Positions 5,893-51,991 of a stretch of 64,000 nucleotides of DNA are shown here, in pieces. A program made the translations under genes and the position numbers. The DNA comes from a candidate division WS6 bacterium GW2011_GWF2_39_15 (GTDB taxonomy: Bacteria; Patescibacteriota; Dojkabacteria; SC72). The first letter of the stretch is position 1, and every line of letters begins with the position of its first letter. The notes beneath the pieces are model-generated. The model saw only the letters and a list, made by a program, of their open reading frames with translations, was not told the origin of the DNA and ran no database searches. Where the stretch lies: positions 428,208 through 492,207 of the forward strand of contig LBWK01000001.1 of NCBI GenBank assembly GCA_000993565.1, given 5' to 3'.

Positions 5893-7407
5893 TTATTCTT
5901 TCTCAATCAGCTTATTTATCCCTACCATGCTCTGAAGCTTCTCAAGAGTTTGTACAACAACCTTTCTCGCCTTTTCTGTCCCTGAAATAAGTATATCCTT
6001 CGCTTCATCCGGTCTTTCTTCATAGTATTTTCTCTTCTCTCGTATAGGCTCAAGGAAGGTGTTAAGGGCAGCAAAAAGCTTCTCTTTGACTTCTATATCC
6101 CCTACTTTCCCTTGTGTGTATCTTTCTTTAAGATCGTTAATCTCGTCCTTATTTGTATTAAACGCATCATGATATATAAAGACGGGATTTCCTTCTACAG
6201 TGCCTTTATCACTGGCCTTAATCCTATTAGGATCGGTATACATAGACATCACTTTCTTCTTTAAAGTTTCTTCATCATCAGAGAGAAGTATGGCATTATG
6301 ACCGCTCTTACTCATTTTCTCTTTACCATCCGTACCAACCAGCCTCGCAACCCTTCCAACTCGACCCTCTGGCATTACAAACAGATTTCCATATGCCTTA
6401 TTAAAGTCTTTTGCTATCTCCCTTGCCTGCTCAATCACAGGAAGCTGGTCTTCTCCAACCGGCACTAAACTGGCGTTAAACTGGAGAATATCTGCAGCCT
6501 GTAGAATCGGGTAACTTATAAAGCCTAAACTCGGGTCTAACTTTTTATACCTCACCTCATCCTTTACAGATGGATTTCTCAACGCTCTTGAGTGCTTTAC
6601 CATATTAAGGAAGAAACTATACAAAACATGCGTTTCTGGGATACCTGATTCAAGGTAAATTGTAGACTTGTTAGGATCTATTCCTACAGCCAGATTATCA
6701 AGGAAGACATCATATACATTCTGGTTTATCAACTCTGATTTATCAAAGTAGTTGGCATATGCGTGATTATTTGCCAAAAGAATATATGTTTCGTATTCAT
6801 CCTGCAATTTAACCCTGTTCTCCAATGTTCCAACGTAATGTCCTATATGCAGTTTCCCGCTAGGAGTATCACCTGTGAGAATTCTTTTTTTACTTACAAC
6901 CCCGGCCTGTCTCTTGAGGTTAGGCTCTGTAATTTCAGCCACTTTATACTTACCAAGCACTTTAAGCAGGTCCTCAACTTTGATTTTAAGGCCGTAACCC
7001 TCCCTGCCAATTCCACATATAACCTTCTCGTTATCCATAACCATACTATCAATATAGATCTTTACCGGAAACTTTTCCTGAAGCTCTCCGAGTAGTGCTG
7101 GTGAGACTAAACCTGTTTCAAATCCTAATTTTTCTAAGTCATTTTCCTCTGCAAAGTTAAGACTCCTGCTCCCGCTTAATTTCTTCACCTCCTGAGTTCT
7201 TACATTCCGATCGTCCCTTCTAAGAATAACAATGTACTCATCCCTCTCGTTCTTAAAGAAAAGTGTTGACATACCATCTCCGTACGTCATAACTGTAACC
7301 CTCACGAGTTCATCAACCGACCTGTTTTTTGCGGCTGTCTGATCTACCTCCTCATACTTTATTCCAGTACTATTCAGTTTTTCTACTATTCTTTTATATG
7401 TATCCAT
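5893..7407 (-). CDS. trpS: tryptophanyl-tRNA synthetase with ~170-aa N-terminal extension
   Basis: Class I motifs PSGKLHIGHYVG (HIGH) and KMSKS; core ~335 aa typical of TrpRS; cognate tRNA-Trp adjacent; T-box leader upstream. N-terminal domain of unknown type (possibly editing/YbaK-like, unverified). Confidence 0.8.
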   Translation of the reverse strand: MDTYKRIVEKLNSTGIKYEEVDQTAAKNRSVDELVRVTVMTYGDGMSTLFFKNERDEYIVILRRDDRNVRTQEVKKLSGSRSLNFAEENDLEKLGFETGLVSPALLGELQEKFPVKIYIDSMVMDNEKVICGIGREGYGLKIKVEDLLKVLGKYKVAEITEPNLKRQAGVVSKKRILTGDTPSGKLHIGHYVGTLENRVKLQDEYETYILLANNHAYANYFDKSELINQNVYDVFLDNLAVGIDPNKSTIYLESGIPETHVLYSFFLNMVKHSRALRNPSVKDEVRYKKLDPSLGFISYPILQAADILQFNASLVPVGEDQLPVIEQAREIAKDFNKAYGNLFVMPEGRVGRVARLVGTDGKEKMSKSGHNAILLSDDEETLKKKVMSMYTDPNRIKASDKGTVEGNPVFIYHDAFNTNKDEINDLKERYTQGKVGDIEVKEKLFAALNTFLEPIREKRKYYEERPDEAKDILISGTEKARKVVVQTLEKLQSMVGINKLIEKE

Positions 7408-7419
7408 CACTTATGGTAT

Positions 7420-7700
7420 ATAAAATAAAAATCCCCATATAGATAGACTAACATATTTTCAAAGTTAATCTAACTACATGGGGACGACATATACATCGTG
7501 GTACCACCCCACTTCATCCCGCTAACCCATAAAAAGAGAATCTCTATAAGTTGGCGGACCTTATCGACTTTATCCAAACATCGATTTGAACTTTCACGCT
7601 GTTCCTACGGCTCTCATACTACTCTACTAACTACAAGCTAGCAGGGTTTCTGTTCGCTGCTCCCGGACCCATTCTCCCGATCAATGCATTTAAATATTCA
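7420..7700 (-). promoter_or_regulatory. T-box riboswitch leader of trpS
   Basis: Minus strand: TGGTATAAT extended -10 (rc of 7711-7719); T-box sequence AAGUGGGGUGGUACCACG (rc of 7497-7514; 15/18 to consensus AAUUAGGGUGGNACCGCG); antiterminator GGGG/CCCC with 7-nt bulge UGGUACC and A2 helix ACGAU/GUCGU; overlapping terminator UCCCCAUGUAG...CUAUAUGGGGA + UUUUUAUUUU (7420-7485); UGG-A in candidate specifier loop. Confidence 0.6.
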
Positions 7701-12367: not shown

Positions 12368-14083
12368 TTACGATATCTTTGCGAGCTCTGTTTTTAGATC
12401 TGCCTTAGAAACAATCTTAGACTCTTTGCTGTTTCTGAGCTTAAACTCGTAGCCCCCATTCTGTAGACTTCTATCACTTATAACCAACCTTACTGGTATA
12501 CCAATTAAATCAGCATCAGAGAACTTTTCACCTGCGGATACATCAGTTCTATCATCCCAAAGGACCTCTATCCCCCCGTCCATCAATTCGTTGTAAAGGG
12601 TTTCAGCCTCCTTAACACCTTCTGAACCCAGTGACACAATATGGACATTATAAGGGGCAATGTTAGCTGGCCACAGTATACCCTTATCGTCATAGAATTT
12701 TTCCGCGATAACACCCATCAATCTACTTGTACCTATTCCATAGCTACCCATATATATTTCTTTCTGCGAGCCGTCAGCATCAGTAAAGTAATAACCGACT
12801 GCCTTAGTAAACTTTGTATTCAATGGGAAAATGTTCCCAACTTCTGAAGCTTTAAAGACATCGTACTCCTCTTTTGTCTCAGGATATAGGTCTCCCAATT
12901 TAGCCACTTTTATATCATAAAACATATTCGGTTTCTCGAGATCCCTCCCCCAGTTTACATTTGCTAGATGATAGTGAGTTTTGTTTCCCCCGGTTTCAAA
13001 ATTCACTAATGGTTCAACTGATTCATCAATATAAACCATAACATCCTTAGGTAGATTTACTATACCTGCATATCCGATTTCAGCTCCTGTAACTTTTTTA
13101 ACTGTTTCTTCTGTTGCAAGTTGTAACTGTTTAACACCTGCAACCTTCATGAGTTTAAGTTCGTTAACATCGTAATCACCTCTTACCGAGGCAACAAGAA
13201 CACCCTTCTCAGACTCAAAAATAAGAGTTTTTGTCGTTTGGTAAGGTTTAATACCCATAAACTGACAAAGATCCTCAACTCCTATAATCCCTTCACCAAA
13301 AACATCCTTAAACTCTTTCATCTCTTTGTCTTGCTCGTAAGCTTTTGATAATGAAGGGGCAATCTCCTTGTTAAAACACAAACCATTACTTTTAACCCTA
13401 AATACTACATCCTCACCTGTTTCAAGCTTTGTCTGAAACTCATGTGAAAAATCTTCCGTAAAATCTCCTCCGGATGCGGCTGTATAGTAAGTATCATCAC
13501 CTATGCCGAGTCTTTTATATACTTTCATGTAAGCCTCCCTGGCAACCTCATAAAATCTCTTAAGGTCTTCAACGTCCTTATGGAAGGAATAAAGATCTTT
13601 CATCCTAAACTCTCTGGTTCTCAATAACCCTGTTTTAGGACGTACCTCATTTCTGAACTTAGATTGGATCTGATACACTGCAAAAGGTAGATCTTTATAG
13701 CTTAAGTTGAATTTTTTAGCAGTCGGAGCGATTATATCTTCATGAGTAGGATTAAGCACATATTCAGCACTATTTCTCTCAAGTGAAATCTTATTAGCCC
13801 CAACCACCTTAAAAAGAACATCAATAGTGTCAAATCTACCAGTCTGTTTCCAATACTCTGTTGGAACAATTGCAGGCATTAACAATTCTACCCCTATTTT
13901 ATCCATTTCTTCTCTTACAATCTGCTCTATTTTTTGAAGTACCCTCAATCCAAGTGGTAAAAAGGTATATCCACCTGCCATCACTTGATCTATAAAAGCA
14001 CCTCTAAACAAATACTCTACGCTTTTAGATTCATATACTTTTCCTGCTTTACTAGTCTTTCCAAATAACTTTGTATATTTCAT
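12368..14083 (-). CDS. proS: prolyl-tRNA synthetase (bacterial type with insertion domain)
   Basis: 571 aa; class II motifs, N-terminus resembles ProRS (FRGAFIDQVMAGGYTFLPLGLRVLQKIEQIVREEM). Confidence 0.85.
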   Translation of the reverse strand: MKYTKLFGKTSKAGKVYESKSVEYLFRGAFIDQVMAGGYTFLPLGLRVLQKIEQIVREEMDKIGVELLMPAIVPTEYWKQTGRFDTIDVLFKVVGANKISLERNSAEYVLNPTHEDIIAPTAKKFNLSYKDLPFAVYQIQSKFRNEVRPKTGLLRTREFRMKDLYSFHKDVEDLKRFYEVAREAYMKVYKRLGIGDDTYYTAASGGDFTEDFSHEFQTKLETGEDVVFRVKSNGLCFNKEIAPSLSKAYEQDKEMKEFKDVFGEGIIGVEDLCQFMGIKPYQTTKTLIFESEKGVLVASVRGDYDVNELKLMKVAGVKQLQLATEETVKKVTGAEIGYAGIVNLPKDVMVYIDESVEPLVNFETGGNKTHYHLANVNWGRDLEKPNMFYDIKVAKLGDLYPETKEEYDVFKASEVGNIFPLNTKFTKAVGYYFTDADGSQKEIYMGSYGIGTSRLMGVIAEKFYDDKGILWPANIAPYNVHIVSLGSEGVKEAETLYNELMDGGIEVLWDDRTDVSAGEKFSDADLIGIPVRLVISDRSLQNGGYEFKLRNSKESKIVSKADLKTELAKIS

Positions 14084-14104
14084 TCCTATATATTATCTAT
14101 TAAG

Positions 14105-14392
14105 TTATATAAAAGCAAAACGCCCTTACAAAAGAATAGTTAAATACACACTATCCTTTTGCAAAGGCGTAAGTAAACGCTGTACCACTTTGCTTTTTCT
14201 AGTTATGTCACCATAACTATATTATTTACTGACTAATATCAGTATATCTGTATATTGCACTCTACAGACCTAGAGAGAGGTTATGAGCAATGAGTCTTTC
14301 CCTCTTCACTCCCCATTGGGATGGATCATAGTGATTGGTTGATTATAACTAGAATAGAGAGATGTGGCAAGCAAAATCTCCCTCTAATTATA
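14105..14392 (-). promoter_or_regulatory. T-box riboswitch leader of proS
   Basis: Minus strand: TATAAT (rc 14386-14391); antiterminator helix A1 GCAAAG/CUUUGC enclosing 7-nt bulge UGGUACA and A2 helix GCGU-UUACUU-ACGC (motif GUGGUACAGCG, 10/11 to T-box core); alternative terminator ACGCCUUUGCAAAAGG...CUUUUGUAAGGGCGU followed by UUUUGCUUUU (14111-14170); UGGU fits discriminator A of tRNA-Pro. Confidence 0.55.
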
Positions 14393-14466
14393 GGATAAAC
14401 AACAAGGTTGTTCATTTCAATATAAATTAGTTGTATTATAAGCCATTCATTTAAAAACGAATCATT

Positions 14467-14745
14467 ATGAATTTTTTTAAAATATTTAGCGGCACCCAAG
14501 AGAAACCTACACGGGAATTCTATCCTGAAGAACTCATTGGTGAGTATATTAACCCTCAAGGAGTAAAAATGAGCGTCGGATGCAGTGTTAATTTCCAGGA
14601 TAATGAAGGAAGGAGCCGTACAGGTATAATTAAAGCTTTTGTAATAGAGAAAAACCTCAAAATACCGTTTTTCCGTACTACAGATAGACCTGAAGAAATC
14701 GAATGGTTTTCTTCAGATTCTGTGTTCTTCAACAACTCGTACTAA
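14467..14745 (+). CDS. small hypothetical protein (92 aa)
   Basis: ORF only; plus-strand between proS leader and PAP2 gene. Confidence 0.25.
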   Translation: MNFFKIFSGTQEKPTREFYPEELIGEYINPQGVKMSVGCSVNFQDNEGRSRTGIIKAFVIEKNLKIPFFRTTDRPEEIEWFSSDSVFFNNSY

Positions 14746-16178: not shown

Positions 16179-16250
16179 AATCGGTAGGTTCTATCGTAGC
16201 ATCAAGTTTTGTATTCTTACAGAAAGACTTATAAATGTAAAGAGGGAATA

Positions 16251-16324
16251 TCGGGGTGACTCGACTCGAACGAGCGACCTCTACGTCCCGAACGTAGCGT
16301 TCTAGCCATCTGAACTACACCCCG
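16251..16324 (-). tRNA. tRNA-Pro (anticodon CGG)
   Basis: Acceptor CGGGGTG/CACCCCG, anticodon stem CTACG/CGTAG loop TTCGGGA, T-loop TTCGAGT, discriminator A. Confidence 0.8.
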
Positions 16325-16381
16325 ACTGGATAATTATACTCTATAATTAAGGAGTATATAATAATTGAATACGTTCTAATG

Positions 16382-18970
16382 CTACATCTTGTCTATACTT
16401 TCTATTCCCAGCAGGTTCAATCCGCTCTTGAGTACAGTTGTAACAGCTTCCACAAGAACCAATCTTGCCTCTTTTTCCTCTGCTCTATCAGCATTTAATA
16501 CCTGATATTTTGAATAAAAGTTATTAAAGAGATTTGCGAGCTCAAAAACATACGTACATATTAAATGCGAAGCAAAATTTGTCTGAGCACTAAGTACAAC
16601 CTTCGGAAACTCTATAAGCTTTTTAATTATAGCCTGCTCTTCAGGACTTTCTAATACACTCCCTTTTAATTCCTTCGAGTATTCCCCTGCCTTCTTTAAA
16701 ATAGAATTGGCTCTTGCGTATGTATAAAGGATATATGGACCGGAATACCCACTCATATTAAGAAAGGTGTCTGGATTATAGTTAACATCCTTATGGAACT
16801 CATGAGACAGTATGCCGAATTTCAAAGCTGCAATAGCAACTTTTTTAGCTATAGAATTGGTATCCTCCTCGCTAAATTCCTCCTTATCTTTAATCCTCTC
16901 TTTGGATACAGCTATCAGCTCGTTAAGCATATCTTCGTAAGAAAAGCTCTTTCCCATTCTGGCAGAGGTCTTCTTCCCCTCGAATAACAGCCAGCCGAAA
17001 CCGATATGCGTATACCTGCCTTTGAACTTTGGATCGATAAGTTCCAAGGCTTTGATCATATTCTTAAAATAATCAACCTGCTCTACTGAAGTAGTAATGA
17101 TAGAAAGGTACAGATCCGGGTACTCTTCAAACTTTTTAAAAGCCAGTCCAAGATCTTTTGCACCATATGTAGGAGCCCCGTCAGAAGTGATAAAGGCAAA
17201 CTTCTTTAATCCGTATTCTTCAGCATCGAATATTACAGCCCCTTTATCCTCTTTAAACACTTTTCCAATGTTTTCTTTCACTAGTTTAATCCCTTTCTCC
17301 ATATTTTCGCTTTCCGGATATTGCCTGTCATATACCACACCAAGCTCTGCAAATACATGATCCTGATACTGGATACTCAAGTCTCTGGTATATTGATAAA
17401 GCTCATTAATCCGGTCATTTTCCTTGCTGTACAAAAGCTTATTGATTTTTCTAACCTCTTCCTCCACTTCTTTATCCTTATCCATACTTAGATTTCCGAA
17501 GACATAACAATCGCTGAAGAACTTCGCAACCTTCTTTATCCCTTCTTTTTCCTTAATTTCATCTAAATAATCCTTTACCATCTCCATATCTTTATCACCA
17601 AGCTCAAAGATCTTGCTCTCTGGACTTACCTTCATAATTACACCCCATAATGCTTTGGCGATCATTAACCCTACATCACCAAAGTAGTTGGCCTTAATTA
17701 CTTCATAGCCTGAATATTCAAAAAGCCTTGTAAGCGAGAGACCTGTAATACCACTTTTGATATGCCCCATTGTAAGCTCCTTATGTGTATTTGGCTGTCC
17801 GAACTCAATCATCACTTTCTTACCGTCCCCAGTTTGATTCTTTCCCCAACTCTCATCCACACTTAGTAACTGACCCTTAATTGAATTCTTATTTACATAC
17901 ATATTAACAAACCCCGGCATAACAGATTCAGCCTTAACTACAATCCCTCCAAGCTTCCCAGCAATCCCTTTTGCTACCTCAATAGGAGATTTTCCTAATT
18001 TTCCTGCTACCCGCATTGCTACAGTACTTGTATAATCTCCATACTTCTTATCTTTAACCGGTGAGACATCAATTAAGTGCGCCTCAAGAGATTTATTAAG
18101 AGAGATATAAAGCTGATTTTGAATCTCACTTTCTATACAATCTGCTTCGTATATAAATTGTTTATCCTTTTTTCCCTCATTACTCTTTGATGATTTCTCC
18201 TTGGAACTATTGCCAACCTTAGGTCTCACGACCCCTTCTATATCTCTAGTCTTATAGTCTACTTCTACAAACTCATGCTCTTTATCCAGAACGATAACTT
18301 CTCCTTCTCCGCCGAAATGTGATGTGATGAAAGCAACAAACTCATTAGCCGCTTTGATAATATTCTTTTCATTGATCCCTTTAAACCCGTCCATTATAAA
18401 ATAGCCATCTTGGGAATCCTCTGTAAGCTTAGTCCTTTCACATTGTCTCCAGTTAAGAGAAAGTGTTGATACATCATAATCATCTTCCCAGATTAGATCT
18501 CCTTGTTTTGGTGATTTTCCCTTCTCTTCCCCAATTCCTAGCCAATGTTCATCTCCTTTAGCCAATTTCAAAACAAAATCCCCGTACACAGTACTTAGAT
18601 CCTCTCCTCCGAAAGGAGTTATGTAGTTAATGCTAAATGAGTTATATAGATCAACAATCGGGTTGATTCTTGGGAGATTACCTCCTTCTATTACTCTAGA
18701 TGCTAATGCGAAGTGGGTAGGTTTAACCTTTTTAGGATTTGCACCAAATTTTCTAAATGCTTCAAAATATACTTTTATATACTCGTTATTTTCAATATCC
18801 TCTTTGCTCTTGAATCTTTCCAAGAAGTCTTTTTGGGAGGCCTCTTTAAACATTGAGACCAATTTTTCATTCTCACTGTTCCAATGATTACTGAAATCCC
18901 TAATTACAGGAATAGCGATGAAAATATTAGGGAATTTTTCAAAAACCTCTCTCTCTATCTTAAACTTCAT
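16382..18970 (-). CDS. argS: arginyl-tRNA synthetase fused to N-terminal B3/4 (PheT-like) domain
   Basis: 862 aa; residues ~80-130 (LPRINPIVDLYNSFSINYITPFGGEDL) resemble B3/4 tRNA-binding/editing domain; ArgRS N-domain (YGDYTSTVAMRVAGKLGKSPIEVAK), HIGH-like QPNTHKELTMGH, DALR-type C-terminus. Confidence 0.75.
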   Translation of the reverse strand: MKFKIEREVFEKFPNIFIAIPVIRDFSNHWNSENEKLVSMFKEASQKDFLERFKSKEDIENNEYIKVYFEAFRKFGANPKKVKPTHFALASRVIEGGNLPRINPIVDLYNSFSINYITPFGGEDLSTVYGDFVLKLAKGDEHWLGIGEEKGKSPKQGDLIWEDDYDVSTLSLNWRQCERTKLTEDSQDGYFIMDGFKGINEKNIIKAANEFVAFITSHFGGEGEVIVLDKEHEFVEVDYKTRDIEGVVRPKVGNSSKEKSSKSNEGKKDKQFIYEADCIESEIQNQLYISLNKSLEAHLIDVSPVKDKKYGDYTSTVAMRVAGKLGKSPIEVAKGIAGKLGGIVVKAESVMPGFVNMYVNKNSIKGQLLSVDESWGKNQTGDGKKVMIEFGQPNTHKELTMGHIKSGITGLSLTRLFEYSGYEVIKANYFGDVGLMIAKALWGVIMKVSPESKIFELGDKDMEMVKDYLDEIKEKEGIKKVAKFFSDCYVFGNLSMDKDKEVEEEVRKINKLLYSKENDRINELYQYTRDLSIQYQDHVFAELGVVYDRQYPESENMEKGIKLVKENIGKVFKEDKGAVIFDAEEYGLKKFAFITSDGAPTYGAKDLGLAFKKFEEYPDLYLSIITTSVEQVDYFKNMIKALELIDPKFKGRYTHIGFGWLLFEGKKTSARMGKSFSYEDMLNELIAVSKERIKDKEEFSEEDTNSIAKKVAIAALKFGILSHEFHKDVNYNPDTFLNMSGYSGPYILYTYARANSILKKAGEYSKELKGSVLESPEEQAIIKKLIEFPKVVLSAQTNFASHLICTYVFELANLFNNFYSKYQVLNADRAEEKEARLVLVEAVTTVLKSGLNLLGIESIDKM

Positions 18971-18993
18971 TGTTATACCTGTTTAATTAGATG

Positions 18994-19067
18994 CGCGCCC
19001 GGAAGGAGTCGAACCCACAACCCCTAGTTCCGAAGACTAGTGCTCTATCCAGTTGAGCTACGGGCGC
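18994..19067 (-). tRNA. tRNA-Arg (anticodon TCG)
   Basis: Acceptor GCGCCCG/CGGGCGC, anticodon stem CTAGT/ACTAG loop CTTCGGA; T-stem has one T-T mismatch. Confidence 0.7.
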
Positions 19068-19085
19068 ATCCCGCTACTTGTAGTT

Positions 19086-19162
19086 TGGCGTACCTGAACG
19101 GAATCGAACCGTTAACCTTTGGTTCCGCAAACCAATGCTCTATCCAATTGAGCTACAGGTAC
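19086..19162 (-). tRNA. tRNA-Arg (anticodon GCG), CCA encoded
   Basis: Acceptor GTACCTG/CAGGTAC, anticodon stem TTGGT/ACCAA loop TTGCGGA, T-arm AACGG-TTCGATT-CCGTT. Confidence 0.7.
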
Positions 19163-19225
19163 ATAATAGAGAAGAATGGGATATTTGTTAAATTGCACTG
19201 CCGCCTGCTATATGACAAAGCTAGA

Positions 19226-19301
19226 TGGCGTGCCCGGCCGGAGTCGAACCGACAACCTACTACTTAGAAGGCAGTTGCTCTTCCAGTTGAGCTACGGGCA
19301 C
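19226..19301 (-). tRNA. tRNA-Arg (anticodon TCT), CCA encoded
   Basis: Acceptor GTGCCCG/CGGGCAC, anticodon loop CTTCTAA, T-arm GTCGG-TTCGACT-CCGGC. Confidence 0.75.
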
Positions 19302-19319
19302 ACGACCCACGTATTATAT

Positions 19320-19616
19320 AACAAAAAACCCCATCCTTAAACCACATATACCTGTGATCTAGGGACGGGGTTACCGTGGTGCCACCCTGGTTCACTAACT
19401 ATATAATGAGATAGTTAGCCTTAATAGATTACCCTACTTTACTCGCCATCCATAATCTTATTATAGATTAGCGGTATTTCTTCGGATATATGATAGAAGC
19501 TCTATTCCAATACTTAAGATGCCGGTCTTCCACTATCACCTGCTCGCTAGTACCATAACAAAGTATTGTACTTTTCTTCCTGAGAGAATTATAGCTAAAA
19601 GTAACAAAGTTTACAA
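19320..19616 (-). promoter_or_regulatory. T-box riboswitch leader (Arg) preceding tRNA-Arg x3 + argS
   Basis: Minus strand: promoter TTGTAA-17-TATAAT (rc 19588-19616); T-box sequence AGGGUGGCACCACGG (rc 19374-19388), bulge UGGC matches discriminator G of the Arg tRNAs; A2 helix ACGG-UAAC-CCGU; terminator AACCCCGUCC...GGAUGGGGUU + UUUUUU (19320-19371); AGA flanked by A's in candidate specifier loop (CCGAAGAAAUACC). Confidence 0.5.
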
Positions 19617-28251: not shown

Positions 28252-30790
28252 TCAGTCCGTCTCCATAGTACTTTGTTTTGGATGTTGTAAATGTAATTGT
28301 CTGCCCTACGCTGGATATTCTTAACGTTTCGTAGTTACCTACATTTCCAAAAGCTGTGTTAGTCCCACGAAGATTTATCAACAATACCTCATCACCCACC
28401 GCCAGACAACCTGTCGAAGGCGATGATTCCAGTGTTACATTATAGTTAACAGCATCTCCACCATCACCACACGAACGTCCAGTAATTATGTTCGATACAT
28501 TAATACTCCCATCTGATGTTACTGTAATACTCCCATCATTACCTGTTCCTAAATCTACAGAAGAATTAAGAGTTACACTATTATCCGAAGAACTTACGTG
28601 GACTCTCCTATCAGAATCCAGGTTCTTCTCAACTACGGTTAATCTGGATACCGATGGGTAGTCCTCACTATTAATTTCTCTTATTCTGTCAGCATCTACT
28701 GTGTAAGTACCTGATAGATTGGTAAGATTGATCCGAACAGCGGATAGCGTTGGGGTTGAAGCTGTATCTGTAGTGGAAAGGATAAACCGGTACTGCATAT
28801 ACTCATCTGCTGTTGAAGATATCGTTGAACCAGCAGCATTACTCAAGTAGTTTTCACCTTTGATATTGTCTATGTAAACAACTGCACTATTAGGAACAGA
28901 TGTCACCCGTAGCTTTGTAATTGCATCACGTGCTGTCGAAGAGATTGCTGAGATATCCCAATAGACTTTTTGCCACGTATTTACCCCGTCAATATAGACA
29001 GTAATTTCGTTCTCAGTGGCTGCAGCCTCGCCTATTCCTAACTTTACTGACCCGCTAGTAGATGACGACCTTATCCATGCAGTCAAGTATTGATATGTTG
29101 AGATGTCCGATGCAGAAATGGTCGCTTCCGCGTAACCGTTAGAGGCCGTAGCAGTTAACTTAGTAAGATTCCCGACAGTGCTCTCATCCTCATCTTCATA
29201 ATAGTCAATGTTTCGAATAATATCTCCCTCAGCTACTGTCATGTTGCTTCCAGTCCAGTTAGTATGCGTATCTGCTGTTTCCAATACTTTATAGTTAGTT
29301 GTTAACGTGGCCGGTTTCCAGGCTTCCCATGTGCCATCAGTAGAGTCCGGTGTTGAACCGCTTCTCGTTTGAACTTGTATCTCTGTATTGGTAGGGAGGT
29401 TTTCTGTCCAGGAAATGTTATTTAGTGCTGTTGAACTTGGAGTGTGAATCTCGTCACTTACGTAAGCGGCATATGTGTTATAGGATAGGCTATATGATAC
29501 AGCCTCAGCCGGAGATCCTACTAATGACGTACCGTAAAATGCTGCAATTCTACCATTACCTGCTGTTCCTCCTGCTGCTGCTGCATAAGGGGTTGTAGAA
29601 GCCGCATATCCGTTACCGCCAGTTCCTCCCGTTACAGTGGTCTTTGTAGTACCCAAATTCAAACTGTCTCCTGCTACCCTGATTGACCCACCCGCACCAC
29701 CTCCACCGCCAGCATCAACGTATGCTGCCCCAGCACCTCCATTACCGCCATTTTCACCATTAACCTGAAGATTTCCTAAAACAGTAACGCTATTTGCAAC
29801 GATTGATACTATTCCTCCACCATCTCCGCCTTTACCTGAAATTGAAGATGTATACGATACAGTATTAGTATATTCTCCCCCTTCACCTCCGGCGGATCCA
29901 AAGAACATCTTACTTAAATCGGCAGTCCCGTAGCTACCACCACCTCCTCCTCCTGCATATGAGCTGTTTACACCATTATATCCACCGTTACCAGAAGTAT
30001 TTGTTCCTCCATTAATTCCACTATATGGCAAACCACCAGTGGGGCTTCCTCCAATACCGTAAATTCCATACCCACCACCACCTCCTCCTCCATAGTGGTT
30101 CGCACCACCACCACCAGCTCCACCAGATGTCGTGGAACCCACTCCGCCCGATGTATTCAAAGATGTTCCACCACCTCCACCACAATATCCATTACCGCCT
30201 AAATAGCTGGTTGTTGTATTCTGACCAGAACCACCACCAGCTGCTCCGTTAGCTCCTGCAGCAATATATCCTCCTGCTCCACCAATACCACAAAGACTTT
30301 CTCCTCCGTTACCTCCTGCTGAATAGTTACCTGACCCATAGTTAGGGTCGTCATCCTGAAATCCTATGTATCCTTTAGCATTTGCATGGATTGTTCCATT
30401 AATAGAAACTGATCCAGTTGCTCGGAAGAAGATAACCCCTCCTTCTCCCTTACCGTTGTTAATAGTACCATCCGGTTGGATCCAGTCATCTGGATACCAG
30501 TTGATACTTGAATTCACTGTTACATCTGTATAGTTAGGGACTCGCTGCAGCATCTCGTCACTCAGTCCGTCTCCATAGTACCTTGATTTAGCAGAAGTGA
30601 AGGTAACCGTTTGGGAGGTAACATTCGAGACCCTCATGGTCTCGTAATTACCTACATTTCCAAAAGCTGTGTTAGTCCCACGAAGATTTATCAACAATAC
30701 CTCATCACCCACCGCCAGACAACCTGTCGAAGGCGATGATTCCAGTACGTTACATTATAGTTAACAGCATCTCCACCATCTATACATGAA
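27420..30790. repeat. tandem ~2.3-kb direct repeat inside the giant gene
   Basis: Near-identical blocks, e.g. 28044-28228 = 30371-30555, 28321-28470 ~ 30651-30790, 27465-27640 ~ 29770-29950. Confidence 0.7.
28208..30712 (-). CDS. giant glycine-rich repeat surface protein, middle ORF (fragment 2 of 3)
   Basis: 834 aa; begins and ends with the same GDEVLLINLRGTNTAFGNVGNYET module; Gly-rich core. Confidence 0.6.
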   Translation of the reverse strand: MGDEVLLINLRGTNTAFGNVGNYETMRVSNVTSQTVTFTSAKSRYYGDGLSDEMLQRVPNYTDVTVNSSINWYPDDWIQPDGTINNGKGEGGVIFFRATGSVSINGTIHANAKGYIGFQDDDPNYGSGNYSAGGNGGESLCGIGGAGGYIAAGANGAAGGGSGQNTTTSYLGGNGYCGGGGGTSLNTSGGVGSTTSGGAGGGGANHYGGGGGGGYGIYGIGGSPTGGLPYSGINGGTNTSGNGGYNGVNSSYAGGGGGGSYGTADLSKMFFGSAGGEGGEYTNTVSYTSSISGKGGDGGGIVSIVANSVTVLGNLQVNGENGGNGGAGAAYVDAGGGGGAGGSIRVAGDSLNLGTTKTTVTGGTGGNGYAASTTPYAAAAGGTAGNGRIAAFYGTSLVGSPAEAVSYSLSYNTYAAYVSDEIHTPSSTALNNISWTENLPTNTEIQVQTRSGSTPDSTDGTWEAWKPATLTTNYKVLETADTHTNWTGSNMTVAEGDIIRNIDYYEDEDESTVGNLTKLTATASNGYAEATISASDISTYQYLTAWIRSSSTSGSVKLGIGEAAATENEITVYIDGVNTWQKVYWDISAISSTARDAITKLRVTSVPNSAVVYIDNIKGENYLSNAAGSTISSTADEYMQYRFILSTTDTASTPTLSAVRINLTNLSGTYTVDADRIREINSEDYPSVSRLTVVEKNLDSDRRVHVSSSDNSVTLNSSVDLGTGNDGSITVTSDGSINVSNIITGRSCGDGGDAVNYNVTLESSPSTGCLAVGDEVLLINLRGTNTAFGNVGNYETLRISSVGQTITFTTSKTKYYGDGLSDDTNIGLDAAASP

Positions 30791-33357
30791 CGTCCCGCAA
30801 TTATACTTGTTGTATTAATACTACTATTCGCAGAAACGGTAACTGCTCCATCTGCTCCATTACCCAAATCGTTCTGTCCAAGACCCAATTTAGCACTTTG
30901 AGCCTTCCGTTTTGATGCAAATGAGGTATCAAACTGATTTCCGAGGTTATGAGTAATATCATTCCATATATCGGTAGCCTGTTTCCACTGACTTCCAACT
31001 TTAACCCATGCAGTTGATATCAAGTCAAAGGAATTCTCGTTATGTACAAGTTCAAGATATGAACCGTTGGGAACAACACCTGTAGTAGAATGCAGCTGAC
31101 TTGTAGACAAGGCTTTCCACTCAGAGCCATCATATACAAAAAGACTCCCAAGAGTCGTGTCATAAACCAACGACCCGCTTCCTACCCCAGTAGGTTTGGA
31201 TGAATAATTTCCAACCTGTAGTTGTCCAGTGACGGCTAAATTAGTCCCGTCATTTGTCAGTACACTACTCGCTTCCCAATCAGTACCATTATGTCTTAAA
31301 GTTTGTCCTGAGGTACCTGCATAGATATTACCAAGCTCTTTCCACTGAGTCTCGTCGTAATAATAAATACTTTTTGAAGCAGAATTGTATACTAATGACC
31401 CACCTCCCAAAGCCGTTGGATTTGATCCATAGCTTGCCAACTGGAGCTGTCCACCGTTTAACACTACATCACCTGAGAAAGTTCCATCTACAACATTGGT
31501 AATACTATCCCCTGCAAAAGATATATTGCCTGAGGCAGAATCAAAAGTTATATCACCCGAGGTATTAGATATTATTGACGATCCGCCTGCAATATCTAAC
31601 TTTCCTCCCGGAGTACTTGTTCCGATGCCCACATTTCCGTCTGCGTCAATGACAAACGGGGTTGTATCTCCCGCTTCATCATTTACCCGAAAACTAAGAC
31701 CCAGAGTGCTATTAGTTAGAGTTAATAGTTCATTACCCTCATCAAAAAAGAGAGGAGCACTTGAATCCATACCACCCAAGGCAAAATCATCCACAAGAGA
31801 AGTCAAATATGTAACATCACCGCCATCAGTGAATAGACTGCCTCCCGTACCGCTTCCCACTAAAAGATCAACAGAGCTTGATCCATCAAAAAAGTAAAGA
31901 TTTGTACCGTTCCACCATAAATCCCCGGAATTAGGTGTAGCAGGATTAATACCAGCAGAAGTCACAAAGTTGATCTGAGCAGAAGAGGTTGTTGCAGCTT
32001 TTATTCCAAGAAAGGCTGCAGGTGAAGCAGCCCCAATTCCAACACGTCCGGTACTGAAGTCAGTAACCTGATTATCCCAATCAAAAGACATAAACGTATA
32101 CGTATTAGTCCCGTTATACCCTGATACAGTCATATCTTTATTGTTTGAGACATGCGTGAAAGCCCATTGAATATGGGTAGAATCAATAACTCCCTTTCTC
32201 ATATTGATAGAGGTATTTCCGTTACTCACCCCGGTTTGGGTAAGGTTCCCCGTATCTGAAAGGGAAAAGCGGACTACACCCGAATTATTTACAAAATTCA
32301 ACGATGGAGAAGCAGATGCTGTAATGCCTAGCCAATATCTACCTGTAGCATCAGATCTGCCAATACCAAGGGTTTGAGCATCAGCAAGTGACTCGAGAAC
32401 AGTTCTCCCTCCCTTTACCTCCAACTTTGCCCCGGGAGCGTCTGTTCCGATACCTACATTGCCATCTGCATCTATAGCAAACGGAGTCGTATCGCCTGCT
32501 TCATCATTTACCCTGAAGCTTAAACCTGCCGTTGTATTACTAAGTGTTAACAATTGGCCGCTGACATCATAAAAAAACGGAGATGAAGAGTCCGAACCTC
32601 CAAAAGCAACATCTAAACCTGTATAGCTATATATAATATCCGGATCAGTTGCCTCATTAAGAAGCCAGTATGATGGCAGATTACCAATCGCCGCTTGAAC
32701 TGCCAGCCAGTTCGTACCATCATAGACTCTTAATACATTATCATTACCATCATAAAAGACCTGGCCGGCGGCAATATCAGAGTATCCTGTAGCATCATTA
32801 GCTGAATCGAATTGAAACTGCTTACTCGCACCCTGAGCACTTATAGCAAATGCCGTTCCACGCACGGCCATCCTCTTACTATTAGCATCAAGAAATGTCT
32901 CTGTGTAAGTACTTCCGTCAGGAGCAAAGTCAACCTCAACATATACCGAAGGATTATTCAAAAAGATGTTTCTAAAAGATGTTTCACTACCACCAGTGAA
33001 GGTTCCCGTACCTAATGCAAGGTTGAATATACCGTTGTATTCACCAATCTCTATATTACTAAAAACCTCCGTAGCCAAAACGGTACCCAAAGTATCAACG
33101 CTGTAGTACTTAACTCTGAAATCACAAGTATCATTGCTCGCACCAAGAAATACACAGGCCGGTGACCCTGCACTCACATTTAGTCCTTCATTCCCACTAT
33201 CATTCCTTACAATTTTTCCCTGAAAATTGATCGTTTCAGAAGTGGCAAACACTGGAGACGAAAAATACACCGCCAAAGCGATTCCGACTAGAGGCAAGAA
33301 AAGAAGTAGTAGAGGGATTTTATTAAGTTTTAGGCAGTAATCGGCAGTGCTTCTCAT
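30691..33357 (-). CDS. giant repeat surface protein, N-terminal ORF with signal peptide (fragment 1 of 3)
   Basis: 888 aa; N-terminal signal/TM MRSTADYCLKLNKIPLLLLFLPLVGIALAVYF; duplicated GLSFRVNDEAGDTTPF[AV]IDADGNVGIGT fibre-like repeats; xYxYDGxxW repeats. Confidence 0.6.
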   Translation of the reverse strand: MRSTADYCLKLNKIPLLLLFLPLVGIALAVYFSSPVFATSETINFQGKIVRNDSGNEGLNVSAGSPACVFLGASNDTCDFRVKYYSVDTLGTVLATEVFSNIEIGEYNGIFNLALGTGTFTGGSETSFRNIFLNNPSVYVEVDFAPDGSTYTETFLDANSKRMAVRGTAFAISAQGASKQFQFDSANDATGYSDIAAGQVFYDGNDNVLRVYDGTNWLAVQAAIGNLPSYWLLNEATDPDIIYSYTGLDVAFGGSDSSSPFFYDVSGQLLTLSNTTAGLSFRVNDEAGDTTPFAIDADGNVGIGTDAPGAKLEVKGGRTVLESLADAQTLGIGRSDATGRYWLGITASASPSLNFVNNSGVVRFSLSDTGNLTQTGVSNGNTSINMRKGVIDSTHIQWAFTHVSNNKDMTVSGYNGTNTYTFMSFDWDNQVTDFSTGRVGIGAASPAAFLGIKAATTSSAQINFVTSAGINPATPNSGDLWWNGTNLYFFDGSSSVDLLVGSGTGGSLFTDGGDVTYLTSLVDDFALGGMDSSAPLFFDEGNELLTLTNSTLGLSFRVNDEAGDTTPFVIDADGNVGIGTSTPGGKLDIAGGSSIISNTSGDITFDSASGNISFAGDSITNVVDGTFSGDVVLNGGQLQLASYGSNPTALGGGSLVYNSASKSIYYYDETQWKELGNIYAGTSGQTLRHNGTDWEASSVLTNDGTNLAVTGQLQVGNYSSKPTGVGSGSLVYDTTLGSLFVYDGSEWKALSTSQLHSTTGVVPNGSYLELVHNENSFDLISTAWVKVGSQWKQATDIWNDITHNLGNQFDTSFASKRKAQSAKLGLGQNDLGNGADGAVTVSANSSINTTSIIAGRSCIDGGDAVNYNVTYWNHRLRQVVWRWVMRYC

Positions 33358-47849: not shown

Positions 47850-48359
47850 GCATAAGCAATCAGATTCTCTAATTACTCATGCCTGACAACCTCTATTACT
47901 AGAGATATCAGGACTTTAAATTCATAAAGAGCTATTAAGAGTGTTTACACACTCAAAACTGAATAGAAATTTGAAGCATTTCAAAAAGTTTTTTGATCTA
48001 TTAGTACACCTTGGCTCAATACATTGCTGTACTTACACCTAGTGCCTATCAACGTAGTAGTCTACTACGGATCTTCCGTTGCGCGAACGCAACAAGCAAA
48101 TCTAATCTTGGGACAGGCTTCGCACTTATATGCTTTCAGTGCTTATCCCTAAATAACATAGCTACCCAGCAATGCTCTTGGTAGAACAGCTGGTACACCA
48201 GAGGTTTACCTCGCCCCGATCCTTTCGTACTAGGGGCCACTTCCCTCAAATTTGCTGCGCCCATACCGGATAGAGACCGACCTGGCTCACGACGGTCTGA
48301 ACCCAGCTCACGTGCCACTTTAATGGACGAACAGTCCAACCCTTGGGAGCTTATCCACT

Positions 48360-48395
<36 letters not shown>

Positions 48396-48803
48396 GGTGC
48401 CGTCAATATGAACTATCGGGCACCACCAGCCTGTTATCCCCGGGGTAACTTATATCCGTTAAACAATGGCGATTCCACATTCTGCCAAAGGGTCACTTAA
48501 ACCTGCTTTCGCAACTGCTCGGGATGTCTCCCTCACAGTAAAGCCACCTTATGCTTATGTACTCTTCATCCGATTTCCATCCGGATTGAGGTGACCTTTG
48601 TACGCTTGCGTTACTCTTTTGCAAGCAACCGCCCCAGTCAAACTGCCCGCCGTGCACTGTTTCCTTGCCGGGTAACGGCAAAGGTGAGAAATTAAACGCC
48701 AATAGGGTGGTATTACACTGGTGACTCCCCAAATCCTGACGAATCTGGTTCAAAGTCTCCCACCTATGCTCTACAACTAGAGCCTAATTTCAATGCAAAG
48801 CTG

Positions 48804-48834
<31 letters not shown>

Positions 48835-48960
48835 GTACGGGTAGGCCGCATCTTCACAGCCATTTCAATTTCGCCGAGCACGCTGTCGAGACAGTGAGAG
48901 AGTCGTTACGCCTTTCATGCAAGCCACTAATTAAGTGGCGAGGTATTACGCTACCTTAGG

Positions 48961-49745
48961 CATTCCTGTTACTTAGATCTAAGTATCTATTTACTTAGAT
49001 GACCTAATTTCTTAGGCGGATATACTTTTGTATATCTCTCTACATTACTGTAGAGGTCGGACTATATCTTCTTCCACATATTTTTGTAAATGGAAGTCTA
49101 ACGTTTAGCCTCTGAGGATTCTTGCAACTAATTCTTTCTTTTCCCACTTTTTACCTTTTCCCATCTGATTCATCTCATATGAATAATCTAACAACTTCAG
49201 CATTCCTTTCGGACTAAGATGTTGCTTATTCTTCATCATCACTATTGCATCTCTAAAAATAGAGAATGCTTTTAGTTTTGTTTTCAACGGATATGTTTCG
49301 AAGAATGGGATAACTCTTTCATAACACGGATTAATTCCGGATATTTGGTATGTATAAACACTATATGGGGAAGTTTTTCGATGTATACTTCCGCAACCAA
49401 ATACTTTCATAATCTCTTCTAGAAACCATTTATTCTTTTCATGTTGATAAACATAAAAAGCTGGTTCTATTCTAAAACCGTATTTAACATTAATACGATT
49501 TTTAATATTAAGACAGAAACTCCCTTCTCCATCTACAAATCCTGAGATAAACCATTTAGAACTTTCGGTATTAGGGATATTAGTTACAAATCTTTCCTGC
49601 TGATTGTCCAAAAACATGAAGTTTTTACTTAATAAATTAAGTATCCATGCCGTTTAGGATGTCCCAGCATACAGTTAGATTTTACAACGGCCCGATATCT
49701 GGTAGCAAAACCAAGTAATAATTATCATTACTACTTAGTAGATAT
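48961..49745 (-). mobile_element. group I intron in 23S rRNA (domain IV, helix 69 3' side)
   Basis: Exon junction reconstructed by alignment to E. coli: ...ACTATAACGGT | intron | CCTAAGGTAGCG...; upstream exon ends in U, intron ends in G (plus c48961); AT-rich insert containing HE ORF. Confidence 0.6.
49105..49617 (-). CDS. LAGLIDADG homing endonuclease (single-motif, intron-encoded)
   Basis: 170 aa; ISGFVDGEGSF LAGLIDADG motif; lies entirely within 23S intron. Confidence 0.8.
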   Translation of the reverse strand: MFLDNQQERFVTNIPNTESSKWFISGFVDGEGSFCLNIKNRINVKYGFRIEPAFYVYQHEKNKWFLEEIMKVFGCGSIHRKTSPYSVYTYQISGINPCYERVIPFFETYPLKTKLKAFSIFRDAIVMMKNKQHLSPKGMLKLLDYSYEMNQMGKGKKWEKKELVARILRG

Positions 49746-51115
49746 TTATCTACCACCGTTATAGTTACAGCCGCCATTGACCAGGGCTTCAGTCATCCGC
49801 TTTTCAACAATTGACACACCGAAGTGTGGCAAGAGTCGATGACAAACTTCCTTAACCTTCTGGCATTGGGCAGGCGTCAGCACTTATACATCTTCTTACG
49901 AATTTGCAAGCGCCTGTAGTTTTGGTAACTAGTCGCTCTCTCCTATTCTGTGCCACTGTAATCACTGCCTGAAAAAATCTGACAGTGTACAGTCCCCCTT
50001 CTCGCTAACTTACGGGGTGAATTTGCCGAATTCCTTAACAACGCATCACTCGTACGTCTTAGTGCATTTACACCAATCTACCGGTGTCGGTTTGCGGTAC
50101 GATTACCATAAATATTGCTCAAGACCGAAGTCTTAAGCGCTAGAAGCTTTTCCTGGAAGATTAATCTGACAGATCGGATTCCTTGCGGTCACCTTTCCAT
50201 AACAGTTCGTGTTCATCCCGCAAGCGGGAAACGTTTTCGTGGATTTACCTGCGAAAACTAACTTGCTGTTTAGACCCCAATCCTTAAGGGGCCTGCCTTT
50301 TCAATCCTCTCACTCCATTGCTAAATATAGTAGTACAGGAATATTAACCTGTTGTCCGTCACCTACGCCTTTCGGCCTCGGCTTAGGATCGACTTACCCA
50401 TGGGCGACTGACGTAGCCATGGAAACCTTAGATATTCGACGAGCAGGGTTTTCACCTGCTTTGCGCTACTCATCCATGCATTCTCACTTCCATACGCTCC
50501 AGCAACTCCTTACGGGCTGCCTTCACTGCTTTTTTTAGCCTGCTAAGGCCAACATGTATGGAACGCTCCTCTACCAAATGTATTAACCGAAGTTAATACA
50601 CATTCGCAGCTTCGGAATTTACCTTTAGCCCCGTTATATCTTAAGCGCAGAATCTCTAGACTAGTAAGCTTTTACGCACTTTTTAAAGGATGGCTGCCTC
50701 TGAGCCAACCTCCTAGCTGTCTGAGAAACTCCACTTCCTTTGCCACTGAGGTAAATTTAGGGTCCTTATCTGACGATCTGGGCTGTTGCCCTTTCGAACG
50801 TATTAGCTTAGCCCAATAGTTCTAACTGCCACAATGTACATTCCGGTATTCGGAGTTTTACAGAACATGGTACTCTTTCGAGCCCAAGATTCTATAAGTG
50901 CTCTACCCCCAGAATTTAAATTGCAACGCTAGCCCAAAAGCTATTTCGAGGAGAACCAGCTATTACCAGGTTCGTTTGGCATATTACCGCTAACCACGTG
51001 TCATCACATAATTTTGTAACATTAAAGTGTTCGAGCCTCCATCCCACTTTCGTGGGACTTCACTCTGCACGAGGTTAGATCACCTGGATTCGGGTCCAGT
51101 GCATACGACTGAATT

Positions 51116-51146
<31 letters not shown>

Positions 51147-51264
51147 CCACCGTTTCCGGTTTAACCTTGCCGTACACAACTGACTCGCATGGTCATTCTT
51201 CAATAGGCACGCCATTATCCTAGCAAGCTAGGACTCTGACTGTTTGTAAGCATATGGTTTCAGT

Positions 51265-51308
<44 letters not shown>

Positions 51309-51991
51309 TCGGAACTTGTTCACTATCGGTCGCAAAAAAGTATTTAGTCTTACCAAGTGGTTTTGGCAGATTCCCACAGATTTTCACTTATTCCGTGGTA
51401 CTTAAGAATACTAAAAGAAAGACACATACCTTTAATGTACACAGCTTTCATGTTCTATGGCCGACCTTTCCAGATCTATTCCATTAGATATGTATTTTGT
51501 AACTTTCCGACCAAATTGCTGTTTGATCTATTAGTATCTTACAACTCCAATATTGCACGAACAGCAACCTACGAGTTTGTCTTTCCAATCGTCGCAACGC
51601 GACTCATGAATTAACGCCCTCTTACACAATATTGGTTTAGACTCTTCCCGTTTCGCTCGCCACTACTAAGGGAATAAACTTATGTTCTTTTTTCCTGTTG
51701 GTACTGAGAGGTTTCACTTCCCAACGTTCTCTCCTCTACAGATATGTATTCTCTGTAGGGTAACTGGGTATGACCCCAGCTGGATTACTCCATTCGGAAA
51801 TCTCCGGGTTATAACGATTGTTTGACATCTCCCCGAAGCATATCGCAGTCTACTACGTCCTTCATCGACTTTTTGCGCCAAGGCATCCACCATATGCCCG
51901 TAGCTTTACTTTTTGAAATGGTTCATTTCTATTCAGTTTTTAAAGTGCAAACACTATATTTTCGTAATCTATTTCTAGACTACATATCTTG

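Follow-up and report, generated by a model that had tools for sequence, protein, structure and literature searches.

T-boxes with a short or 'ultrashort' Stem I were reportedly described by Sherwood et al. upstream of ileS in Actinobacteria. In such elements the apical loop displays the specifier codon with a conserved purine on its 3′ side, the interdigitated T-loops that bind the tRNA elbow are missing, and function depends on the K-turn, Stem II and the Stem IIA/B pseudoknot; this architecture is a feature of actinobacterial translational T-boxes, and T-boxes that act on transcription generally require a long Stem I with the elbow-binding motif for fast capture of the tRNA (PMC7583486). Here we describe the leader of the prolyl-tRNA synthetase gene proS, encoded on the minus strand of a 64 000 nt stretch of the candidate division WS6 bacterium GW2011_GWF2_39_15 (Patescibacteriota, Dojkabacteria); this whole stretch is referred to as the window, and all positions are given within it. 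Very probably, this leader is a T-box that brings about transcription attenuation of proS by means of a mutually exclusive antiterminator and terminator, and it does so with a minimal decoding module. Its closest known relatives are the apical-specifier T-boxes of actinobacterial ileS, and the proS leader combines the short-Stem-I decoding module of translational T-boxes with a transcriptional expression platform.

Comparison with the actinobacterial ileS T-boxes, for which we relied on descriptions in reviews, revealed that in both cases a short Stem I presents the specifier, with a conserved purine 3′ of it, at its apical loop, that no platform of interdigitated T-loops is available for the tRNA elbow, that a basal K-turn leads straight into a Stem II or Stem II-like hairpin and then into a pseudoknot, putative in the proS leader, at the IIA/B position, and that the discriminator core is built from helix A1, a 7 nt UGGN bulge and helix A2. 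The two differ in their expression platforms, as the actinobacterial elements possess a translational sequestrator of the Shine–Dalgarno (SD) sequence, whereas the proS leader carries a 21 bp terminator and a U-tract and leaves the SD sequence uninvolved. They also differ in specificity and lineage: the actinobacterial type serves Ile and ileS in Actinobacteria, and the type found here serves Pro and proS (apparently also Trp, in the same genome) in WS6 of the Patescibacteria. Furthermore, Stem II of the proS leader is devoid of the AGUA/GAA S-turn consensus, and the closing pair of A2 is G-C rather than G.U. With canonical T-boxes of Rfam family RF00230, such as those of Bacillus subtilis tyrS and glyQS and of proS/proBA in Firmicutes, the proS leader has in common the exclusive antiterminator and terminator, the predicted UGGN–NCCA pairing, the basal K-turn, a site upstream of an aminoacyl-tRNA synthetase gene and a specifier matching the amino acid of that gene. 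Unlike these, it does not contain the distal two-thirds of Stem I, which comprise the Specifier internal loop with its S-turn, the AG bulge and the distal loop. The T-box itself is a known kind of element; what appears to be new is an apical specifier joined to an intrinsic terminator, in a lineage of the Candidate Phyla Radiation (CPR) and missed by the standard model.

The product of the regulated gene, proS (12368–14083, minus strand), is a prolyl-tRNA synthetase (ProRS) of the bacterial type that includes an editing domain; its Pfam domains are tRNA-synt_2b (PF00587, the class II core), tRNA_edit (PF04073, editing) and HGTP_anticodon (PF03129, anticodon-binding), and it shows 100 % identity to the ProRS of GW2011_GWF2_39_15. 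Relatives of its leader were collected in two ways. A scan of GTDB genomes with the ProRS returned 16 loci, all from Patescibacteria-like metagenome-assembled genomes, and three of these carried a homologous leader (L001, L002 and L007). Ten further contigs were taken via close ProRS protein homologues, seven of which had the leader (L137 (= L138), L139, L140, which is cut at its 5′ end, L141, L142 and L143); on the remaining three (L144–L146, with ProRS identities of 65–67 %) no such leader was present. Additionally, a metagenome scan with the pattern GTGGTACMGCG-N6-10-CGCCYTTG recovered 120 generic T-box loci, none of them beside a close ProRS. For the 5′ domain, plain MAFFT placed a length difference within a stem, and an alignment padded with N in the loop was used instead; L007 was excluded from the counts for the 3′ domain as its alignment register was broken there.

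The antiterminator lies at 14161–14193 (minus strand) and consists of helix A1, formed by GCAAAG (14193–14188) and CUUUGC (14166–14161), the 7 nt bulge UGGUACA (14187–14181) and helix A2 (GCGU/ACGC) with the loop UUACUU (14180–14167). An earlier note on this DNA had named both helices and the bulge, all of which we located on the minus strand, and RNAfold of the isolated segment returned exactly this A1/bulge/A2 structure (ΔG −9.8 kcal/mol). On its own the antiterminator is no more stable than chance (z −0.9); a weak isolated antiterminator is normal in T-boxes, where the tRNA stabilizes that fold. Across nine leaders it is nearly invariant, with 97.8 % of cells paired. The intrinsic terminator (14111–14170, minus strand) is a 21 bp hairpin at 14170–14120, with strands ACGCCUUUGCAAAAGGAUAGU and ACUAUUCUUUUGUAAGGGCGU, followed by the U-tract UUUGCUUUU. 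Its folding energy is −29.9 kcal/mol (z −8.1), which none of 200 shuffled sequences matched, and in nine leaders it is 100 % paired with seven of its 21 pairs changed on both sides, a result equalled by none of 500 shuffles. As the strand ACGCCUUUGC is common to the antiterminator and the terminator, the two folds are mutually exclusive. The terminator had been put at about 15 bp in the earlier note, and whilst its length had to be corrected, its exclusive pairing with the 3′ strand of the antiterminator and its U-tract were borne out.

In L137, a single C to U change in the shared strand is matched by G to A changes both in A2 and in the 3′ strand of the terminator. Such a three-way compensation is exactly what selection on both exclusive helices would be predicted to leave behind. 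The minimum-energy fold of the full-length leader contains the terminator, as expected for a T-box in the absence of tRNA. The alternative helix ends more than 20 nt 5′ of the AGGA/ATG of proS and no SD sequence lies within it, and a U-run is found 3′ of the terminator stem in every relative. Because the U-tract follows the helix in all members and no SD sequence is covered, control would be transcriptional and not translational.

Upstream of the switch, the 5′ domain begins with an ultrashort Stem I (14307–14333, minus strand), composed of a C-stem (CAC/GUG), the bulge UAU, tandem G.A/A.G pairs, a U.G pair and the hairpin CCAU-CCCA-AUGG. Every T-box Stem I has a K-turn (GA motif) at its base. 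In this family the layout of the K-turn is a C-stem strand of CAC or CGC, a 3 nt bulge, GA, a short hairpin, GA, and GUG or GCG, and that of the window reads CAC-UAU-GA...GA-GUG, capped directly by the 4 bp hairpin. The K-turn signature is complete, comprising the invariant GA...GA, the 3 nt bulge, a non-Watson–Crick 3b.3n pair (U.U, U.G or A.G) and a covarying C-stem, in which pair 2–29 switches from A-U to G-C in three of eight sequences. Above the K-turn we found just 4–5 bp and a loop of 4–8 nt, without an AG bulge or distal loop; the Stem I region envisaged in the earlier note is in fact a specifier hairpin seated directly on the K-turn. All four pairs of this hairpin have changed on both sides, and it is 100 % paired.

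The apical loop holds CCY followed by a purine in each of nine proS leaders (CCC-A, CCU-A or CCC-G), whilst the neighbouring loop bases vary. In the window, the specifier CCC and its 3′ A occupy 14317–14320 (minus strand) within AU-CCC-A-AU; the other loops read CCU-A (L001 and L139), GU-CCC-A-C (L002), AA-CCU-A-A (L137), UUU-CCC-G (L141), AU-CCU-A-A (L142), CUU-CCU-A (L143) and CAU-CCU-A (L007). Several Pro codons had been noticed earlier in this region, of which CCC-A (14320–14317) emerged as the specifier, whilst the CCU of AUAACCUCU turned out to form the 3′ strand of Stem II. This Stem II-like domain (14276–14305, minus strand) consists of the helix AGAGG/CCUCU, an internal loop (GAAA/AUAA), a 4 bp upper helix and the loop CAUU. 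Its lower helix is 100 % paired with four of five pairs changed on both sides, and exists in the versions AGAGG/CCUCU, GAAGG/CCUUC, AAGGG/CCCUU, GUGGG/CUCAC and GAGAG/CUCUC. For the 5′ module as a whole, 96.9 % of cells are paired compared with 77.2 % in shuffles, and ten of 16 pairs have changed on both sides; its covariation value is 0.746, compared with 0.299 ± 0.041 in shuffles (0 of 500 as high) and 0.35 for the best slid control. Immediately upstream lies a sigma-70-type promoter (14342–14370, minus strand; TTGCCA, a 17 nt spacer and TATAAT), which agrees with the consensus at 11 of 12 positions and is the best promoter match upstream of the gene. A TATAAT-like −10 box occurs 8–18 nt 5′ of the K-turn in all nine full leaders and, as it abuts the K-turn, there is no space for a long Stem I further upstream.

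The middle of the leader is more variable. Just 3′ of Stem II, a H-type pseudoknot resembling Stem IIA/B (14247–14275, minus strand) is predicted from the stems S1 (CUCUA/UAGAG) and S2 (UCUG/CAGA). In the five leaders able to form it, 95.7 % of its cells are paired, five pairs have changed on both sides, and covariation is 0.62 relative to 0.25 in shuffles (0 of 500 as high); given this small sample, the data are suggestive of a IIA/B-like pseudoknot. The minimum-energy fold also contains an additional hairpin (ACUGA-UAUUAG-UCAGU, 14228–14243, minus strand), which is kept in L001, L139 and L137 and compensated in L002 (GCUAA/UUAGC), and a Stem III hairpin (AGUUAUG-GUGA-CAUAACU, 14201–14218, minus strand) followed by the purine run AGAAAAA. 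The clade of the window leader is characterized by the extra hairpin together with a GNRA-looped Stem III, and the equivalent hairpin of L002 and L007 is aligned to Stem III by RF00230. For the purine motif RRRxG-Stem III-AA, no convincing match was seen in the proS leader of the window. The WS6 clade is also without the AGUA/GAA S-turn and the CCGUUA F-box consensus, and possesses a Stem II-like hairpin, in which the internal loop is symmetric, together with the H-type pseudoknot. Differing in this respect from the actinobacterial ileS type, L141 and L143 have no Stem III, and L141 also has no pseudoknot, which is present in L143; L142 displays a Stem III-like hairpin and no pseudoknot. The smallest member is L141 (1032–1200 of its contig, plus strand), in which only AUAAAAAAGAAAAAA separates Stem II from helix A1.

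To place the leader within the T-box family we turned to covariance models. RF00230 produced no match anywhere in the window at its gathering score (93 bits), nor, in a local search of 13950–14600 at E ≤ 10, on the proS leader, so that the match anticipated in the earlier note did not materialize. The same model does match two homologues, both below threshold. In L002 (35.9 bits, E = 1e-6) the K-turn, Stem III and the antiterminator are aligned, and 76 Stem I positions are deleted, leaving the 7 nt loop GUCCCAC; in L007 (34.1 bits, E = 4e-6) Stem III and the antiterminator are aligned and CCCGUUA is read as the F-box. The ultrashort Stem I of the proS leaders explains the failure of RF00230 on that of the window. 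As the window leader and L002 share the same antiterminator and terminator, the two are, by comparison of their sequences, clearly homologous, and the window leader therefore belongs with the T-boxes even though the Rfam model misses it. A covariance model of the 5′ domain scored 64.8 bits on the window leader (14333–14274), itself a member of the training set; outside its own clade this model gave a weak partial match to the Trp leader of the window (8.8 bits), and it found nothing in ∼75 generic T-box loci. Of the features by which a T-box is recognized, a 7 nt UGGN bulge, a terminator sharing a strand with the antiterminator, a cognate codon followed by a purine and a K-turn are present. 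Our observations on the proS leader directly concern its sequence elements, both alternative folds, their conservation and covariation, and its homology to T-boxes. The central claim of the earlier note, that a T-box leader controls proS via mutually exclusive helices, is thus supported by the folds, by covariation and by the sub-threshold matches of RF00230 in homologues.

A tRNA-Pro(CGG) is encoded nearby, at 16250–16325; it has A as its discriminator (A73), and its CCA is not encoded. The UGGU of the bulge complements the ACCA end of a tRNA-Pro with A73. The three leader and tRNA sets of the window served as an internal control: in each, the last base of UGGN is complementary to the discriminator, with UGGU and A73 for Pro, UGGU and A73 for Trp, and UGGC and G73 for Arg. 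The match of UGGU to tRNA-Pro(CGG) proposed in the earlier note therefore stands as regards the discriminator, but not as regards the anticodon, since CGG pairs with neither CCC nor CCU. With the specifiers CCC and CCU, tRNA-Pro(GGG) is expected, and is likely to be the ligand in place of the nearby CGG isoacceptor.

From these elements we infer that tRNA is bound, which isoacceptor is involved and what the regulatory outcome would be. Transcription would start a few bases 5′ of 14333, and the first 27 nt would fold into the K-turn capped by the short hairpin, where the apical CCC and its purine would meet the tRNA-Pro anticodon, most likely that of the GGG isoacceptor. There would be no distal Stem I platform on which the tRNA elbow could dock. 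The K-turn may instead set the Stem II-like hairpin and the IIA/B-like pseudoknot beside the codon–anticodon helix, comparable with the short-Stem-I T-boxes of Actinobacteria. If the tRNA were uncharged, its free ACCA-3′ end would pair with the UGGU bulge and stabilize the weak antiterminator, ACGCCUUUGC would be kept out of the 21 bp terminator, and RNA polymerase would read into proS. With a charged tRNA, or with none, the terminator, being by far the more stable fold, would be expected to form and transcription would end at the U-tract.

A number of observations weigh against this interpretation. The A2 pair adjoining the bulge (14180/14167) is G-C in all nine proS leaders, although a conserved G.U wobble at this position is regarded as a steric sensor of aminoacylation (PMC7583486). 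Six of the nine specifiers are CCU and do not obey the third-position 'C rule', and the loop in the clade of the window leader can shut to 4 nt (CCAU-CCCA-AUGG), such that it must open for codon–anticodon pairing. The internal loop of Stem II is GAAA/AUAA or GAUU/UUAA and not the canonical S-turn GAA/AGUA. No gene for tRNA-Pro(GGG) lies within the window, and to this must be added that RF00230 failed on the window leader even at E ≤ 10. Finally, the family is small, with eight to nine sequences that represent perhaps four to five independent lineages, and the counts reported above lean towards the model, as the structure was drawn by eye from the same sequences and loop lengths were registered by hand using N padding.

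Some of these points could also be expected of a degenerate or relic T-box, or of a constitutive attenuator, in which the terminator merely lowers proS expression and tRNA sensing has been lost. Absence of a match to RF00230, G-C in place of the A2 G.U wobble, the non-canonical S-turn, and the loss of Stem III and the pseudoknot in L141 would all be compatible with such decay. A relic, however, should decay rather than covary, and many of the changes we observed are compensatory. Moreover, the codon and its purine, the K-turn, UGGU, A1/A2 and the terminator are all kept across proS orthologues whose proteins are 56–80 % identical, and the three-way compensation in L137 argues that selection maintains both alternative helices, making a relic very unlikely. 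We also considered a canonical T-box with an unrecognized long Stem I, in which another Pro codon, for example the CCU of AUAACCUCU (14282–14274), would lie in an internal Specifier Loop. Transcriptional T-boxes do normally have a long Stem I (PMC7583486), and CCU follows AUAA or UUAA in six of eight leaders. Yet this CCU is base-paired, lying in the 3′ strand of a helix in which four pairs are compensatory, and the corresponding sequences ACUCAC in L142 and ACUCUC in L143 contain no Pro codon in either case. Neither the AG bulge nor the distal-loop motifs of the T-loop platform are present, RF00230 discards 76 Stem I positions in L002, and with the −10 box abutting the K-turn nothing further upstream would be transcribed; an internal-loop specifier is consequently highly unlikely.

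Ribosome-mediated attenuation through a leader peptide was the other possibility, with stalling at the Pro codon of a mini-ORF (14328–14305) that specifies MIHPNGE (AUG-AUC-CAU-CCC-AAU-GGG-GAG-UGA). The window, L001 and L139 all contain this mini-ORF, its frame including CCC or CCU, and a terminator/antiterminator pair follows downstream. The CCY of the loop is in frame in only five of eight leaders, however, proline is missing from the peptides of L137 and L142, and conservation does not extend to the stop codon, the frame running on into Stem II in L137, L141 and L142. Its 'start' draws on the UG of UGA in the K-turn and reads UUG in three leaders; it is not preceded by an SD sequence, and a lone Pro codon would make for a weak sensor. 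Furthermore, the helices around the mini-ORF covary, which indicates selection on RNA structure and not on a peptide, and a peptide would not account for the UGGN bulge and its match to the tRNA discriminator. We consider a leader peptide extremely unlikely and reject it, as its frame and stop are not conserved; the alternative specifier is likewise rejected, as its CCU is paired in Stem II.

Beyond the proS leader, interpreted as a minimal T-box acting on transcription, we lean with modest confidence towards a broader view, in which the Dojkabacteria (WS6) and neighbouring Patescibacteria possess a distinct class of minimal, terminating T-boxes without an elbow platform, upstream of at least proS and a trpS-like gene, the smallest of which (L141) dispenses with the pseudoknot and Stem III. 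In TBDB, T-boxes were gathered by means of RF00230, and the class II (short-Stem-I) model was applied to Actinobacteria only (PMC7778990); with surveys such as Rfam and TBDB relying on RF00230 and the short model confined to Actinobacteria, elements like the proS leader are invisible to them. A full-text search of one library returned no literature tying T-boxes to the CPR or Patescibacteria, which is no proof of novelty. The combination of an apical specifier with a terminator runs counter to the generalization made for transcriptional T-boxes (PMC7583486), and would provide a natural test case for the kinetic argument behind it. Should these minimal T-boxes work, the view that a long Stem I is needed for timely co-transcriptional capture of tRNA would have to be revised, as would that of Stem III as indispensable for sensing the tRNA 3′ end. 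It might then be that transcription is slow or paused in these bacteria with reduced genomes, or that an unknown helper is involved. Aminoacyl-tRNA synthetase genes in such genomes would be under tRNA-dependent feedback control, and the smallest member, which spans ∼100 nt between the start of the K-turn and the antiterminator end, might serve as a minimal scaffold on which to engineer tRNA sensors.

The earlier note had also counted three synthetase leaders of this kind in the 64 kb of the window, and the other two are both matched by RF00230, in each case below the gathering score of 93. The Arg leader (19358–19593, minus strand), upstream of three tRNA-Arg genes and argS, scored 73.8 bits with a full-length Stem I alignment; the Trp leader (7477–7693, minus strand), upstream of a class Ib synthetase gene and tRNA-Trp, scored 42.9 bits with 72 Stem I positions deleted. 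The genome contains divergent T-boxes, and among these three none is as divergent as the proS leader. All three are found in the same genome and on the same strand, are terminator-based in design and have a UGGN that matches the discriminator. Stem I of the Arg leader, unlike that of the proS leader, is of the canonical long type and includes an AG bulge and a distal loop, and both the Arg and the Trp leader have canonical GGG/CCC A1 helices and a bulge ending in ACC. The A2 pair beside the bulge is A-U in both.

The Trp leader has an ultrashort Stem I of its own, in which the hairpin CGG-GAGAAUGGGU-CCG, whose apical loop presents UGG-G, caps a K-turn (GC-AUU-GA...GA-GC); both this K-turn and the truncated stem are aligned by RF00230, as in L002. 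The leader is coupled to a terminator (CCCCAUGUAG...CUAUAUGGGG) and a U-run. The synthetase encoded downstream (5893–7410, minus strand) can be assigned as TrpRS on account of the UGG specifier of its T-box and the tRNA-Trp gene just downstream; it carries an N-terminal editing domain of the YbaK/ProX type (PF04073, residues 43–150), an unusual fusion. For the Arg leader, the probable specifier is AGA and the bulge reads UGGC. Genes for tRNA-Arg (UCU, GCG and UCG) are located at 18993–19301 (minus strand), between the leader and argS, suggesting that this riboswitch may control the genes for its own ligand; a TATAAT directly after the Arg terminator could be a separate promoter for these tRNAs. 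The ArgRS itself (16382–18970, minus strand, 862 aa) bears an N-terminal B3_4 domain (PF03483, residues 70–199, E = 3e-21), a domain normally found in the PheRS beta subunit, and in the Dojkabacteria relative L144 the ArgRS is 599 aa and has no B3_4 domain.

Elsewhere in the window, an ORF of 888 aa (30691–33357, minus strand), situated in a run of co-directional large genes, had no Pfam match at E ≤ 0.001. The 23S rRNA gene (47980–51915, minus strand) is 3936 nt long, compared with 2925 nt for the model, and contains several large insertions, including one of 70 nt near model position 290; this is typical of rRNA genes in the CPR.

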